Below are positions 4,587-12,624 of a DNA stretch of 27,654 nucleotides, piece by piece. This DNA comes from a virus (taxonomy: Duplodnaviria; Caudoviricetes), in the IMG/VR virus record IMGVR_UViG_3300025103_000122, positions 1 to 27,654 of that record; one strand, given 5' to 3'. Position 1 is the stretch's first letter. Every line of letters begins with the position of its first letter. The notes beneath the pieces were generated by a model, which was not told the DNA's origin, did no database searches, and worked only from the letters and a program-made list of their open reading frames with translations. A program made the translations under genes and the position numbers.

Positions 4587-4640
4587 TTTCATCTCCAAGT
4601 TGTTAGTTTAAAAGTGCCGATTTGTTATCCTCGACACAGA

Positions 4641-4666
4641 TAAGTATATACTAATATTGGTATATA
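4641..4666. promoter_or_regulatory. Operator-like palindrome copy 2 with leftward -10 (TATACT)
   Basis: TATATACTAATATTGGTATATA (4645-4666) is a 22-bp palindrome with one mismatched pair, upstream of the leftward operon. Confidence 0.75.
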
Positions 4667-4728
4667 GGTAGATTATTTTACATTTATTTTATTTCCTTTA
4701 GGAATAGGGGTTGTAGAGGTATTTTTTT

Positions 4729-4759
4729 ATCCCTGACTATAGATAGGGATTATTTTTTT
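4729..4759 (+). terminator. Terminator-like hairpin upstream of the ncRNA candidate
   Basis: ATCCCT-N10-AGGGAT followed by TATTTTTTT. Confidence 0.45.
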
Positions 4760-4832
4760 GCAAATTTTTATAAAATGATCAGAAAACCTGTGTATTATTA
4801 CTGGTCTTGGTTTAGCGTTTTTTGAGTAGATC

Positions 4833-4873
4833 AGAAAGCGAAAACCCCTAGAGTGAATGAAGCTCTAAGGGTT
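4833..4873 (-). terminator. Intrinsic terminator of the antisense RNA
   Basis: Minus strand CCCUUAGAG-loop-CUCUAGGGG followed by UUUUCGCUUUCU. Confidence 0.65.
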
Positions 4874-4905
4874 GTCTAAAACTGGTGTTTGCCCCACCGT
4901 TCTGT
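4833..4905 (-). ncRNA. Candidate ~70-nt antisense RNA
   Basis: Bounded by the minus-strand promoter at 4938-4911 and the intrinsic terminator at 4873-4833. Confidence 0.62.
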
Positions 4906-4910
4906 GAAAG

Positions 4911-4938
4911 ATTATACCATCTTAGGACTTCTTGGCAA
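4911..4938 (-). promoter_or_regulatory. Sigma70-type promoter (leftward)
   Basis: TTGCCA (4938-4933), 16-nt spacer, TATAAT (4916-4911) with extended -10 TGgTATAAT. Confidence 0.7.
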
Positions 4939-5375
4939 ATATCAGGATGCGAATCGTGATATGTCTGACATTTTATGTTTCACTCACACGACAAAAAAGA
5001 GATTCAGTTATGCATCCCAAGAAGCTGTTGATTGATGTTAGATTAAGAAGGTTTATACTGGTAACCACCTTGAACCGATAAAGAAAATCTAGCGTAGAGT
5101 TGCAGAAGGCTGAGTACGGATCATACCGTAGCAATGAACTCTAACTTGTATAGCTATGATGGTTACAAGCATTGGATGATACTGCGATGAGCTGTAAACC
5201 GATGATAATCTCTAACTGCTTTAATTAGTGGTTAGGGATTGATTTGCTTGAACTTCCCCAACTCCAAACTGTTCCCGATAAGTTAAAAAGCAAAAGCTCT
5301 TGATCTTAAAAAGGGATTTATCCCTCTGCTCTACTGAAGTCACTCGCTGAAAGCGAAATATAAGAGTAAACCAAC

Positions 5376-5404
5376 TTACCACTTTGTACTAATATTGATA
5401 TAAT
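5376..5404 (+). promoter_or_regulatory. Rightward sigma70 promoter overlapped by operator copy 3
   Basis: TTACCA-17-TATAAT with TGa extension. TACTAATATTGATATA (5387-5402) overlaps the spacer and -10. Confidence 0.75.
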
Positions 5405-5431
5405 TATATTATTCTATTACTTTTTTTTATT

Positions 5432-5650
5432 ATGTCTAAGATAATTTATTACGAATCAATTCCTAGAGAGCTTGAAAGGCTTGAGATCACACAAAAAGAA
5501 GCAGCCAAAATGTTAGGTTTATCACTTAGTGGTTTTACATCAAGAATAGCATCAAACAAACCTATAACTCATTGGATGATCTATGGGTTGTCCAATTATT
5601 TAGAGCCAACTAAACCTAGAAAACGTATTAAGAATGCCAAAAAAAATTGA
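5432..5650 (+). CDS. Cro/XRE-like helix-turn-helix regulator
   Basis: LERLEITQKEAAKMLGLSLSGFTSRI HTH signature; first gene of the rightward operon. Confidence 0.85.
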   Translation: MSKIIYYESIPRELERLEITQKEAAKMLGLSLSGFTSRIASNKPITHWMIYGLSNYLEPTKPRKRIKNAKKN

Positions 5651-7757: not shown

Positions 7758-9037
7758 AGGCTGAGATAGAATTACCTCCGAAGCTCGTACCAGTATTTGA
7801 AGGTGAAGCTAGGTATCGTATAGCCTATGGAGGTCGGGGTAGCGGGAAAACACGCTCGTTTGCGCTGATGACAGCAGTTAAAGGTTATCAATGGGGTATG
7901 GAAGGTCTGAAAGGTCAAATACTATGTGGTCGTGAGTTTATGAACTCTCTTAACGATTCTTCATTAGAGGAGATCAAGTCAGCTATTGCATCAGTACCGT
8001 GGTTAGCTGACTATTACGAATGCGGCGAGAAATACATTCGCAGCAGAGATGGCAACATAACCTATACATTCGCAGGACTTCGCAGATCACTAGAGTCAAT
8101 TAAGTCTAAAGCAAGAATATTGTTAGCTTTCGTAGATGAAGCTGAACAGGTATCAGGCAAGGCTTGGCAGGTATTGTTACCTAGCGTTAGGGAGGTCAAT
8201 AGTGAAGTATGGATCACATACAACCCTGAATCAAAATACAGCGCAACACACGAAAGATTCAGAGCTAATCCACCCAAAGATGCTAAGATTGTCCAAATGA
8301 ATTACACAGATAACCCATGGTTTCCTGATGTGCTAGAACAAACTAGACTAGAAGATAAAGAGAAACGACCTGATCAGTATGAACACATATGGCTCGGAGG
8401 TTTCCAAATTTTCTCGGAAGGTAGTTACTATGCTAGTGAAATGAGAAGGGCAAGAGAAGAAGATCGCATAACTAAAGTTAGATATGATCGTGGTAAAGGT
8501 GTTGTTGTTGCATTCGATTTAGGAGTGGGCGATTCAACTGCGCTATGGTTTGCACAATTTATAGGAACTGAAGTACATCTAATAGACTACTATGAAGCAT
8601 CAGGGGTTGGTTTAGATCATTATGTGAAGGTGTTACAAGATAAAGGCTACATCTATGATCAATACATATTCCCACATGACATCAGAGTAAGAGAGCTTGG
8701 ATCAGGCAAAAGTAGACTAGAAACATTACAAGGTATGGGTATTCACGCTGACAAAACAGAGATTTGTCCACAGTTATTGATTGAGGATGGCATACAAAAA
8801 GTAAGAGAGATGTTAGACAAATGCTTCTTTGATGAAGAAAAGTGTGAACGTGGCATAGATTGTTTGTTAAACTATAGCAAAAAATGGGATGACTCAGGAG
8901 CAACATGGAGGATGCGACCTGATCACAATTGGGCATCACATGGGGCAGACAGTTTTCGTTACCTCGCTGTAGGGTATCAACCTTACAATGAATCATGGGA
9001 TAAACCAATTAGGAGAAATCTACAAGGAGTAGTATGA
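7754..9037 (+). CDS. terL: Terminase large subunit (PBSX/Terminase_3-type ATPase plus RNase H-like nuclease)
   Basis: YGGRGSGKT Walker A, FVDEAE Walker B, TYNP coupling motif, FDLGVGD and SHGADSFRY nuclease motifs; GTG start. Confidence 0.97.
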   Translation: MKAEIELPPKLVPVFEGEARYRIAYGGRGSGKTRSFALMTAVKGYQWGMEGLKGQILCGREFMNSLNDSSLEEIKSAIASVPWLADYYECGEKYIRSRDGNITYTFAGLRRSLESIKSKARILLAFVDEAEQVSGKAWQVLLPSVREVNSEVWITYNPESKYSATHERFRANPPKDAKIVQMNYTDNPWFPDVLEQTRLEDKEKRPDQYEHIWLGGFQIFSEGSYYASEMRRAREEDRITKVRYDRGKGVVVAFDLGVGDSTALWFAQFIGTEVHLIDYYEASGVGLDHYVKVLQDKGYIYDQYIFPHDIRVRELGSGKSRLETLQGMGIHADKTEICPQLLIEDGIQKVREMLDKCFFDEEKCERGIDCLLNYSKKWDDSGATWRMRPDHNWASHGADSFRYLAVGYQPYNESWDKPIRRNLQGVV

Positions 9038-12000
9038 GTTTCTTTGAAAATTTATGGACAGTAATTAAGCCTGAAATAACAGGATTATTAGGTACAGAGC
9101 AATCAAGGCAAGATAAAGTCACAGGATTACTTATTGATAAACCATTTGAATTTGGTAAAAACATAGGTCTTTATGATGACAAGATAAAAGCTCCTGATCT
9201 TATAAATACTACAAACCCAAACAATACAGTTAAGCAAAACGCTATTGCAAGTATGAATGATAGTGTTGCTAACATGGCGCAAGACTCAGAAATATTTAGA
9301 AAAAACCTACCAGCAAGTATGTTTGAGATTGGTGAGTTTGGTATTGATCTAGCAATGAATCCAATCAAATACGGTAAAAAAGCACTTAGTTTAGGAAGTG
9401 GTTTGATTTACAATGCACTCCCTGATCATGCACCTTTAAAAAGATTCGCAGATTGGTCAGATAAATTAATAGGTTACGAGGATCAAACAAAAGCAGATTC
9501 AGAAATGGCATCAATGGTGGTTGATTCAACAATAGAGTTTTTTGAAACACCAGGTGCATTAAGAAAGGCAATGCTAGAAAACCCAGCTGATGTATTGGCT
9601 ATGCTAATGGGTGGTAGTTCCATATTCAAAAAATTGGTGGCAGAAAAACCTCAAGAAGTTTTATTAATGAAAAATGCTATCGAGAGAATAGGACACAAAG
9701 AAAGCCTATTTAAAAGAATAGGAGCAATTCCTGTTGGTCTATCAATGAAAGATGTGAGCGTTATATCAGGTAAAGATGTTGTAGAGTCGTTAAAGAAGAT
9801 GGGTACTGATGCATCGGAGGATGCAGGTAAGTACGCTGAAACTGGAGGATTTGTACCACATACTTTAAAAGAAATTGAAAATGAAAATTTTACAAAACAA
9901 ACAGTTGGTATAAATGAATTGATTTCAGGCGATGCATTTCTTAAAGACTATATTGAATCAAACCCAAGCATAAGAGATTTCGATAAAGATGCAACTATGC
10001 CTATTGTTGTTGACTCGAAAGGAGCTGTAAGAGATGGTTACAATAGAATTAACCAAGCTCTTAAAAATGGTGAAACTGAAATTGAAATATTGAAAGGATC
10101 AAACACAGAACTAAGCAAAGTGGGTGGTACAGACTTAGCAACGCAAAGACAACTAGCTAATGTAGATGCATCGGGTTTTTATTCAAAAGCTGAACAAGTA
10201 ATACTAGATCAAATGCCAAAAGATTTACCACAAAATCAATTGCGTGGTTGGTTTGAAAAAAGACGTGTATCAAAGACTGAGTTAGAAGATTTAGGCATAC
10301 TTGCCTTGGTTGATAATATGGAGATAGGTGAGAAAGTAACAAAAGAAGGGTTACTACAACATATTGCTGATCAAAATCTAACATTCTCAAATACAACTTT
10401 AGATGACAATGCAAGTAGAAATATAGACCTGTATGATGAAGATATACAAGCTCGACAAGATTTTGAAATACCTGATGCTGGTGTAGACTTCATGAATAGA
10501 TACAATGATGGCGATGTAAATTGGGATCATATCTTAGCGAGTGCTGATGAGCCTGACGATTGGTTAAATATATCAGGTAACGAATGGAGACTGTCACCTG
10601 ATAGTTCAGACAGAGCTACTAACTATGGTCAAGATATATTTGATGATGAAATTGGATCGTCAGTAAACGTAAACCCTAGTAGTGATGGTGAAATAGCTAG
10701 AATAAGGGGAGGGCAAACGTATCATTACCCTTTTAACAATAAAACTAAGAAAGATTACCCTGATGAAGAAGATGGTAGTATAAACAAGAACTACATGGAT
10801 TTTCGATCTTTTCATGATGATGACAATCTAAAGTTTACTAAGTATATGCACTTCATAAACCCTGAAAGGTATCCTAAGACAAAATCTATGGAACTTAAAA
10901 TACTATATCAAGATTATAATCAAAGAAAAAAACTAGATGAAGTATATCTTTCAGATCGAGAGAGGGAAACATATCTACCTCGCTCTCACGGTCAATTAGA
11001 TACTCAAGAAAATTATAAAAACAAGATTGCAATGCTAGAAGCTAGTATTGAGGATGATATCCGTAATGATAAGATGGAATGGGATATTAAGATGTTGCGA
11101 GAAGCAGCTTATTTACACAACCCATGGGATATGGAAGGTGAAGATAGATTGAAAATGGATATGGTAGAAGCTCAAGAAATGATGGGTAGAGATAGGTATC
11201 TTGAATCACCTGAGTTTGAAATAGATGTAGAAGTAGGTGGAGAAGAATATCAAATATATGGTAATGAGGACATTGGTTACGTAGTATCAACACCTAACGA
11301 TGGATTAGAACATCGTGATCGTGCGCTTCAGGATTTATGGGATTTACCTACTGTAGAATCAGCAATTAGAAATCACGCAAGGGATGAGGGTTATATTGAT
11401 GAGTGGTATGATGGTGCTAATAATGAAGGTTCTTCTACAAAATGGGAAAATTACACTTTAAATAGACATCATAGAGATGCACCACAAGAAAATTACAAAG
11501 AAGAATTAATTATATTAAGTCCTGACAAAGAGCAACTGCGTGGTGGTTATCAGTTTGAAAGTGGAGTGCATTACGGTGGACACAAAGGTTTATTTGCACA
11601 TTTAAGAAAATCTGATAGACGAGAATTAGGTACAAACAGTAATGATGTGTATTTTATTGAAGAAGCGCAATCAGACTTTCAACAATCAAGAAGGGAATTA
11701 GGTGCGACAAAAGCAGAAACAGACGATTTAAAGTATCAAAACCGTATGGAAAGCTCTGCTACAGGTGATATGCTAACTGCTTGGAACGCTTTAGATTATG
11801 GTAAAAAGCGTTTAGATGGTGAGAGATCAATAGCATCCCCAACAAGCGAAACCATTGGTGGTGACTTAGTATGGAAGAAGTTAGTTAAAACATCAGAACA
11901 AAAAGCACTTTATAAACAAGCGATGTTGGCTCAAACAGATCAATATCAACTATCTAATTTTCAATCTACTTCAGGTGAACAAAAAAAGAAAGCGTTAGAA

Positions 12001-12624
12001 CAAGTTAAAAGTTGGAATGATAATTGGCATTTAAATACTCGCAATCCTGATTCTGAGAGTTGGGCAGGTTTAAGTTTTGATGAATATGAGGAACTAGGTC
12101 AATATTTGAGTGAGCATCAAAACGAATTACAAAAAACAGGTCGTAAGTTAGATGACCACTCACACACTAGCAGAACACCAATACAAGGAGATCGTTGGTA
12201 TAAAACAGTTCTAAACTATGCAATTATGAAGGCTGTAGAAGAAGGTAAAAGCACAATATCTTGGGCAAACTCAGACCAAATATTAGATCAATGGAATCCA
12301 GGTAGAGATACAATTTACACTAAGAAAATTAAATTCAAAGAAAGCTATGTTAACACTTACGATAGGAAGCTGAAAAAAGCAGCTGAAAAATATGCTAAAG
12401 ATTATGATGGTGAATTTGAAATTATAAAAATTGATCTTGGTGATGGTAACCATAGTGAAAACTTTTCAATTAGAATTACTCCTGAGATGATAGATAAATT
12501 GATGGAGGAGTTTCCAGCTAATACAGAAACAGGTTTTGCTAGACCTACACATGGTAAACTACAGCAAATACCTTCAGGCTTACTTAAAACGGATGTAACA
12601 GAACAACAGGGGTTATTAGTATGA
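9034..12624 (+). CDS. Large acidic multidomain protein, probably virion-internal/injected, with a ParB/Srx-like segment
   Basis: 1196 aa; PIVVDSKGAVRDGYNR; GFYSKAE; HYGG...HLRKSDR...YFIEEAQSD. The function is inferred. Confidence 0.7.
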   Translation: MSFFENLWTVIKPEITGLLGTEQSRQDKVTGLLIDKPFEFGKNIGLYDDKIKAPDLINTTNPNNTVKQNAIASMNDSVANMAQDSEIFRKNLPASMFEIGEFGIDLAMNPIKYGKKALSLGSGLIYNALPDHAPLKRFADWSDKLIGYEDQTKADSEMASMVVDSTIEFFETPGALRKAMLENPADVLAMLMGGSSIFKKLVAEKPQEVLLMKNAIERIGHKESLFKRIGAIPVGLSMKDVSVISGKDVVESLKKMGTDASEDAGKYAETGGFVPHTLKEIENENFTKQTVGINELISGDAFLKDYIESNPSIRDFDKDATMPIVVDSKGAVRDGYNRINQALKNGETEIEILKGSNTELSKVGGTDLATQRQLANVDASGFYSKAEQVILDQMPKDLPQNQLRGWFEKRRVSKTELEDLGILALVDNMEIGEKVTKEGLLQHIADQNLTFSNTTLDDNASRNIDLYDEDIQARQDFEIPDAGVDFMNRYNDGDVNWDHILASADEPDDWLNISGNEWRLSPDSSDRATNYGQDIFDDEIGSSVNVNPSSDGEIARIRGGQTYHYPFNNKTKKDYPDEEDGSINKNYMDFRSFHDDDNLKFTKYMHFINPERYPKTKSMELKILYQDYNQRKKLDEVYLSDRERETYLPRSHGQLDTQENYKNKIAMLEASIEDDIRNDKMEWDIKMLREAAYLHNPWDMEGEDRLKMDMVEAQEMMGRDRYLESPEFEIDVEVGGEEYQIYGNEDIGYVVSTPNDGLEHRDRALQDLWDLPTVESAIRNHARDEGYIDEWYDGANNEGSSTKWENYTLNRHHRDAPQENYKEELIILSPDKEQLRGGYQFESGVHYGGHKGLFAHLRKSDRRELGTNSNDVYFIEEAQSDFQQSRRELGATKAETDDLKYQNRMESSATGDMLTAWNALDYGKKRLDGERSIASPTSETIGGDLVWKKLVKTSEQKALYKQAMLAQTDQYQLSNFQSTSGEQKKKALEQVKSWNDNWHLNTRNPDSESWAGLSFDEYEELGQYLSEHQNELQKTGRKLDDHSHTSRTPIQGDRWYKTVLNYAIMKAVEEGKSTISWANSDQILDQWNPGRDTIYTKKIKFKESYVNTYDRKLKKAAEKYAKDYDGEFEIIKIDLGDGNHSENFSIRITPEMIDKLMEEFPANTETGFARPTHGKLQQIPSGLLKTDVTEQQGLLV

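Follow-up and report, generated by a model that had tools for sequence, protein, structure and literature searches.

The locus examined here raises the question of what a large structured RNA does at the point where the gene directions of a tailed phage diverge. The window, meaning the whole 27,654-nucleotide stretch that was analysed, is a 27.7-kb tailed-phage fragment estimated to be 73% complete. Terminase, portal, scaffold, and capsid genes lie on its + strand and SSB and small early genes on its - strand, with a folded element occupying the gap between them. In the initial annotation, this element had been taken for a noncoding RNA of unrecognised family and set beside the large phage RNAs GOLLD and ROOL. 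The reading favoured here, with a probability of roughly 80%, is that it is a protein-free replication origin, primed by RNA in the ColE1/MRB manner and belonging to a separate sequence family, and that these phages of ~40 kb probably have no other origin.

Homologues and distribution of the element

Homologues were gathered through terL neighbours and by pattern scans of viral and metagenome contigs. The 863 stored loci, a highly redundant collection with many contigs fetched repeatedly, were reduced to 459 that matched the family profile, 346 that were full-length, 116 that were distinct, and 82 after clustering, partial and near-duplicate rows being excluded. These 82 nonredundant homologues are 46-85% identical to the window and form two clades (A and B) and one outlier (L849). 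TARA or marine occurs in many of their contig names, and close variants of the element are contained in seawater RNA runs; in eight RNA runs, the element matches were in assembled contigs only, with small word shares, and other phage genes were covered too. The element was carried by 23 of 80 terL loci, most of the remaining loci being too short upstream, and it is constantly found to the left of an HTH-nuclease-NinB-terminase block.

A blastn search of the element against GenBank phages gave no match, and blastn searches of PLSDB with the window, two divergent homologues, and one 3' fragment gave chance matches only, two weak ones of which were inspected. No homologue was present among 120 loci when 3 of 64 parts of the bacterial genome contigs were scanned with a loose pattern. 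No description of this family, or of the repeat identity coupling reported below, was found in the literature searched, in which subscription journals were thinly covered.

Fold of the predicted long RNA

The + strand of the element has a folding energy of -163.3 kcal/mol (z = -5.15), and none of 100 shuffles was equally good; the - strand gave z = -3.20 in the shuffle comparison. Taken together with the pairings listed for the window and the compensatory changes found in the 82 homologues, this argues that the RNA-like fold is real, and the earlier proposal of a large, covarying, structured RNA read from the + strand is supported. The family is also unrecognised, as had been claimed: no Rfam family reached its gathering score in the window, and only chance matches (E 0.46-4.4) fell within 4600-5500. 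The long RNA predicted here is structured and free of ORFs, and its length fits the ~450-550 nt of a ColE1/MRB-type origin. Features of the locus are collected in Table 1.

Table 1. Features predicted in and around the element, in window coordinates
Feature	Position	Strand	Remarks
Probable leftward (early) promoter	4645-4680	-	Read from sequence; putative role
Terminator-like hairpin with T-run	4729-4750	+	Just upstream of long-RNA promoter; missing in some homologues
Predicted -10 box (TATTAT) of long RNA	4793-4798	+	No consensus -35
Predicted primer RNA (RNA II)	4804-5290	+	~480 nt to putative RNA-DNA transition; covariation; ends estimated from where the promoter and repeats lie
Predicted antisense RNA (RNA I)	4841-4904	-	64 nt, two stem-loops, U tail
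Second antisense stem-loop, intrinsic terminator	4843-4873	-	Double changes in 10/10 pairs; followed by U-run on - strand
First antisense stem-loop and complement	4884-4898	both	Variable loop, candidate specificity (incompatibility) loop
Antisense promoter TTGCCA-16-TGG-TATAAT	4911-4938	-	11/12 consensus
Core domain 1	4945-5017	+	Helix 4945-50/5012-17 around helix 4954-58/4987-91
Long-range pseudoknot 5004-5008/5109-5113	5004-5113	+	97% canonical; 4/5 pairs with double changes
Helices 5036-44/5086-94, 5095-99/5139-43, 5115-19/5126-30	5036-5143	+	94-99% canonical, including optional 5050-5076 domain
Kissing loop 5120-5124/5156-5160	5120-5160	+	95% canonical; 3' partner is loop of hairpin 5145-5169
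Repeat R1	5192-5203	+	Blocks 5192-94 and 5199-5203; predicted RNA segment pairing with template DNA strand at R2
Long hairpin between repeats	5207-5240	+	87% canonical; double changes in 7/14 pairs
Repeat R2	5269-5279	+	Blocks 5269-71 and 5275-79; predicted start of persistent RNA-DNA hybrid
A-run, candidate RNA-to-DNA transition	5285-5289	+	3' of R2; role proposed from the ColE1 case
Two small hairpins 5312-16/5321-25, 5345-55	5312-5355	+	87% and 83% canonical, double changes; 3' of putative origin
Rightward promoter TTACCA-17-TG-TATAAT with operator-like motif	5376-5404	+	Upstream of HTH gene
72-aa HTH protein gene	5432-5650	+	First of HTH-VRR_NUC-HNH-NinB-terS-terL; constant right-hand neighbour

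Covariation was assessed on an earlier set of 54 sequences against a tree-based null with a cut-off of E <= 0.05. Eight pairs passed, seven of them canonical (5040-5090, 5095-5143, and 5119-5126 are among the pairs at this cut-off) and one an identity pair. Canonical percentages were taken from the alignment of the 82 homologues, which was not fitted to a structure. In this larger set, helices 4945/5017, 4954/4991, 5036/5094, 5050/5076 (optional), 5095/5143, 5115/5130, 5145/5169, 5207/5240, and 5312/5325 were supported. Core domain 1 encloses a near-invariant internal loop (4958-65, 4981-86), and the kissing-loop pair 5122-5158 is canonical in 78 of 78 homologues, with 29 double changes and 8 shared changes on the tree. 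The optional domain (window 5045-5085) is missing in some homologues and 50-90 nt larger in clade B.

All 15 pairings listed in the initial annotation exist in the window, 14 of them perfect when G-U is allowed and one (4843-4853/4863-4873) with a single mismatch as written, because of a bulge. Across the homologues, those at 4945/5017 (91% canonical), 5050/5076 (94%, the domain itself being missing from some), 5115/5130 (99%), and 5145/5169 (90%) and the 14-bp stem 5207/5240 (87%) were retained. The helix placed at 5035/5095 holds at 97% as 5036/5094, a shift of one pair, and the helix given as 5096-5101/5137-5142 holds at 98% as 5095/5143; the sub-hairpin drawn inside it at 5103-5112 is instead an arm of the pseudoknot. 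Helices 4843/4873 and 4884/4898 show double changes but are just 71-77% canonical in the unfitted alignment. The pairing that was said to link the two ends of the element (4807/5374) is 81% canonical but has double changes in just two of eight pairs, and the 5' leader pairs about equally with 4872-4885 (median -5.8 kcal/mol, against -5.9 kcal/mol for the end-to-end partner). Helices 4801-07/4828-34 (44%), 4928/5024 (57%), 4951/5005 (the GAATC helix, 51%), 5243/5294 (54%), and 5297/5366 (55%) proved to be specific to the window. Absent from the earlier description were the direct repeats, the promoter of the antisense RNA, and, within the fold, the pseudoknot, the kissing loop, and helix 4954-58/4987-91.

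Two further candidates were examined and found to be unsupported: a pairing of AGAGAT (4999-5004) with 5208-5213, which in the one register examined reached 52%, and a 70% pseudoknot between 4889-93 and 4934-38, the 3' arm of which is the -35 box of the antisense promoter. A run-through form of the long RNA could reach 5374, and the hairpins at 5312-5355 could act as single-stranded DNA signals.

A predicted antisense transcription unit and flanking promoters

A near-invariant ATTATA at 4911-4916 is the -10 box of the opposite strand, with TTGCCA 16 nt away. On the - strand, TATAAT is perfect in 81 of 82 homologues, and the -35 box of 64 of these 81 matches at four or more of its six positions. 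The predicted product, which folds into two hairpins, terminates with a U-run in 72 of the 81 homologues and is 57-74 nt long where that run is present; its start lies 80-114 nt inside the long RNA (99 nt in the window). Judged from sequence, 81 of 82 homologues thus have a predicted short antisense RNA, with a promoter and a terminator of its own, that overlaps the long RNA at its 5' end. The first antisense loop differs between phages and, by analogy with MRB RNA I (PMC3035462), is a candidate for the specificity loop.

The outlier L849 is without the entire antisense unit and begins at the core, which it retains together with both repeats (L849:5560-6100, - strand). It may be a natural "runaway" or purely lytic version, and, with the unit missing here, the predicted copy control is not universal in the family.

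The -10 box of the long RNA matches at five of six positions in nearly all clade A homologues (TATTAT, TATCAT, or TATGAT) and is weak in clade B. The motif TACTAATATTGG, at 4649-4660 in the leftward promoter, recurs in the rightward promoter. In its 14-base form, it lies at 4649-4662 and 5387-5400, in both outward-facing promoters, with 13 of 14 positions matching in the window, and homologue groups have different variants that are matched between their two promoters. This motif is a candidate operator of the HTH protein, the promoter and operator roles alike being putative. The HTH protein itself gave a weak HTH_3 match in one homologue and was named VapI/HigA-like antidote by a source in one cluster.

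Coupled direct repeats

The five-base blocks of R1 and R2 (5199-5203 and 5275-5279), 76 nt apart in the window, are identical to each other in 81 of 82 homologues and occur in seven variants. On the tree, 11 changes were counted for R1, 12 for R2, and 12 for the two jointly; the repeats are spaced by 72-86 nt across the homologues. Among 98,346 pairs of variable columns, only 4 were perfectly identical, and all 4 lie within R1/R2. The second block behaves similarly, 5192/5269 and 5194/5271 being identical in 78 and 77 of 82 homologues, respectively, and positions 5198/5274 switch between A-C and G-T, in six of six cases jointly.

A complementary covarying column within the RNA, which would provide a third strand for R1/R2, was searched for, and none was found. 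Because R1 and R2 are kept identical without a complementary RNA partner, the simplest partner is the complement of R2, that is, the template DNA strand. This identity coupling predicts that the upstream segment of the RNA can pair with the template strand further downstream. Given how short the repeats are, and that they are not rich in G, the stability of such a hybrid is doubtful without structural help. An A-run of at least 4 follows within 45 nt 3' of R2 in 79 of 82 homologues, a count that was made in AT-rich DNA and has no chance control.

In L016, L028, L332, L217, and L849, insertions with a GAACGAAG/GCGAAGCG-type motif are seen 3' of R2. This type of motif is reminiscent of plasmid single-strand initiation signals; one search of PLSDB with the 3' fragment bearing the insertion motif returned nothing.

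Gene content and relatives without the element

The three complete element-bearing genomes are 39-41 kb long. Searches for the O-like initiator phrog_270, DnaB_C, DNA_pol_A, Phage_integrase, and RVT_1 found none in any of the three, with positive controls each time. Scans of 42 G008 ORFs against Pfam and of 55 G006/G007 ORFs against PHROGs recognised no replication initiator, primase, or helicase; virion-gene homologues, oxygenases, and a few short or boundary-spanning ORFs lay outside these scans. In terms of recognisable families, all three complete genomes are thus without an initiator of their own, and the many early ORFs without a family could hide one. Partition, dimer-resolution, and toxin-antitoxin genes were not recognised either, so a plasmid state, which is where copy control would be needed, is only putative. 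tRNA and tmRNA genes were absent from the window and from all six of the genomes or contigs scanned.

Two relatives lack the element. The sister phage G164 (79% complete; capsid protein 71-75% and terL protein 69-70% identical) carries, immediately ahead of its early promoter, nine DnaA boxes within ~210 bp and an AT-rich stretch after them; with the DnaA-box consensus, there were 13 matches in 20 kb against 4.0 expected. Several GATC sites also lie in this oriC-like region (L887:12330-12625), and no initiator gene was found. The cluster is apparently a mimic of the host origin. The cultured Octadecabacter phage DB2, also without the element and with a capsid protein 68% identical, encodes an O-like initiator. 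No DnaA-box cluster was found in any of the 82 element loci. The presence of the element, of DnaA boxes, or of an O-like initiator in different relatives suggests an origin slot filled by alternative solutions, as judged from two relatives, one of them 79% complete. GC skew flips at the element, which is not independent evidence because gene direction flips there too.

Comparison with known RNA-primed origins and large phage RNAs

RNA-based origins as such are known from ColE1, MRB plasmids, and mycobacteriophages, and it is the sequence family that appears to be new here. The closest likeness in layout is to the MRB plasmids (pB1067, pES213, pSDH-2), part of whose origin is covered by Rfam PAGEV (RF03037). 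As far as the account in PMC3035462 goes, MRB RNA I is 68 nt long with two stem-loops and starts 104 nt inside RNA II, which is at least 465 nt long, has no consensus promoter, and acts by a mechanism that was uncharacterised. The corresponding values in the window are an antisense RNA of 64 nt, an offset of 99, and R2 at +470 of the long RNA. In neither system is there a Rep gene; both have, as a prediction in the present case, a two-hairpin antisense RNA of ~65 nt starting ~100 nt inside a long RNA of ~470 nt. They also share the order of terminator, linker, first hairpin, -10, and -35 and, towards the 3' end, a direct repeat made of two blocks and centred on CCGA.

The MRB members compared were taken from a table of PMC8683028, excluding pB1067 and pAK1. 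In Vibrionaceae MRB-type origins, a two-block repeat pair with a CCGAAA core was found in eight of eight examined (38 records matched), the spacing being 93-96 nt in the five origins for which it is given, and in seven of eight the two copies agree in the two bases that follow the core (TA/TA twice, GG/GG five times). This variation falls into two main states and so may reflect one event. The element repeats, in contrast, are 72-86 nt apart and far more variable; the element also resides in tailed phages rather than plasmids, and its replication is predicted whereas that of MRB is demonstrated. Two Vibrio plasmids considered as MRB candidates encoded Rep and were set aside as not MRB. The two-block MRB/CLV repeat, which lies where the PAGEV region ends on its 3' side and whose copies vary in step (L884:3955-4070, L885, L889-L894), was not found described in the literature searched.

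With ColE1/pMB1, the element has in common a long primer-like RNA and an overlapping antisense RNA, both predicted here, and a sense-strand direct repeat that implies pairing of RNA with template, with an A-run after the downstream repeat. In ColE1, whose sense strand has two G6 runs, a persistent hybrid forms only if a run of rG in RNA II pairs with a run of dC in the template, according to the part of PMC4412123 relied on here; the trigger of that hybrid is called speculative even for ColE1 in a review (PMC5043065, in the section drawn on). The ColE1 RNA I (RF00106) differs in having three hairpins and a length of ~108 nt, its G-run repeats are 247 nt apart, and Rop was not recognised in the element-bearing phages. 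ColE1-like origins are, in the portion of PMC8683028 used, known from five orders of Gammaproteobacteria.

No sequence kinship accompanies these likenesses. Nhmmer comparison with ColE1, Pasteurella, and MRB/PAGEV origins gave a best E of 0.15, which is no similarity, and a model of the element RNA I found none of these origins and, in 151 Vibrionaceae genomes, a single match to a plain terminator. Neither ColE1 RNA I/RNA II (RF00106, nhmmer; ColE1 control, 73.8 bits) nor the MRB 110-bp RNA I core or PAGEV (controls matched on pSDH-2 and pPHDP10) was matched by the element, and an MRB origin gave nothing against GenBank phages in the blastn set. The element is therefore not a member of the ColE1, Pasteurella, MRB, or PAGEV families, and the likeness would be one of working only.

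RNA-based origins have been reported for prophages of the cluster A mycobacteriophages RedRock, Alma, and LadyBird, which, as described in the available part of PMC7157519, are phages without RepA whose replication needs a noncoding transcribed region. That description, which was compared in place of the sequences, puts their origins beside parABS, at one to two copies and in the prophage only; no parABS was recognised in the element-bearing phages.

Like ROOL (RF03087) and GOLLD, the element is phage-borne, ~575 nt long, and rich in helices, with a pseudoknot and a kissing loop. An internal antisense unit and coupled repeats are not described for those RNAs in the portions of the literature drawn on, and they often adjoin tRNA genes, of which none is near the element in six of six sequences scanned. 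The ROOL covariance model gave no match at E <= 10 (130 bits on the pMP118 control), and the family HMM found nothing in the pMP118 ROOL at E <= 100. The earlier likening to GOLLD and ROOL accordingly gives way, on these grounds and on the antisense unit, the repeats, and the gene content, to a probable primer RNA.

Proposed mechanism and alternative explanations

Comparative analysis of the sequences establishes the fold, the antisense promoter-hairpin-terminator unit, the enforced identity of the repeats, and the lack of recognisable replication genes; the antisense unit, the coupled repeats, and the gene content point to the primer RNA of a replication origin. In the mechanism proposed, host RNA polymerase would start the long RNA near 4804, and this RNA would fold into the multi-helix core with the pseudoknot and kissing loop that covariation demonstrates. 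While the polymerase passes 5269-5279, the R1 segment of the transcript (5192-5203) would base-pair with the R2 template strand exposed there, and this pairing, suggested by R1 = R2 identity, would seed a persistent RNA-DNA hybrid. By analogy with the ColE1 scheme as outlined in PMC5043065, host RNase H and DNA polymerase I might then make a primer near 5285. The predicted antisense RNA of 64 nt, started from the 4938-4911 promoter, would attach to the long RNA at its 5' end and refold it, which would limit initiation and set incompatibility.

Among the alternatives, a cis-acting leader or switch between the divergent operons, in which the antisense RNA toggles read-through into the HTH-terminase operon, would suit the position of the element at the divergence point beside a constant right-hand neighbour, the two near-equal partners of the 5' leader, and the conservation of the antisense unit. 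It is nonetheless unlikely, as the HTH operon has a strong conserved promoter of its own (5376-5404), and it would leave unexplained R1 = R2 identity without an RNA partner, the missing replication genes, and the DnaA-box cluster of the sister phage. Slightly less probable still is a free-standing ornate RNA of the ROOL/GOLLD type, possibly multimeric, with R1 and R2 touching as a parallel like-with-like duplex. Its ROOL-like size and multi-pseudoknot fold (PMC12286853 and PMC5737381, in the parts used) fit, and the coupling does run in parallel register to 5198/5274 (six of six joint) and 5197/5273; CGA-based parallel homoduplexes are known, but those described are of DNA and pH-dependent. 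The A-C/G-T coupling would be equally compatible with an RNA-template hybrid that has an rA-dG/rG-dA mismatch, neither ROOL similarity nor a tRNA context was found, and the antisense promoter and the pattern of gene content would go unaccounted for.

Identical direct repeats in a structured RNA are also what jumping reverse transcriptases, telomerase- or DRT2-like, demand of their templates, on which the repeats would be take-off and landing sites; alternatively, gene conversion might have equalised the repeats. Both are highly improbable. RVT_1 was found in none of five genomes (three complete), the spacing of 72-86 nt occurs in all three frames, with stops and no endless ORF, and the endless-ORF and reverse-transcriptase template readings were rejected. 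Interspersed with the identical positions are others that show no coupling or are coupled as nonidentical pairs, a pattern that copying would not give.

With the RNA-primed origin retained as the preferred reading, a broader proposal can be put forward with more reserve, though we still lean towards it: that a widespread ocean phage lineage copies its DNA with SSB and recombination helpers as the only replication proteins it encodes, through a new family of RNA-primed origins interchangeable with the oriC-like DnaA-box origin of sister phages, with programmable repeats, free to vary yet always matched, that pair RNA to template DNA to trigger the priming R-loop, a rule held in common with Vibrio MRB plasmids. 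Such an origin would offer an explanation of how 40-kb marine phages without a recognisable replication module copy their DNA, and its antisense RNA suggests an overlooked multicopy plasmid state or superinfection control. The seven natural matched versions of the repeats and the two-block contact make the model of RNA-template pairing directly testable, and the same repeat signature occurs in MRB plasmids, for whose RNA II no mechanism is characterised in the consulted part of PMC3035462. "Identity covariation" of this kind can serve as a search signal for RNA-primed origins among the large RNAs of phages that lack annotation.

Other genes of the element-bearing phages

Two observations were made outside the putative origin region. 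A 1196-aa ORF without a Pfam or PHROG match follows terL in the window (9034-12624), and in relatives this position is taken by proteins of 535-1341 aa. The tail genes of complete relatives are followed by clusters of 2OG-Fe(II) oxygenase-like genes (L869:11321-13064 and L865:2308-4794).
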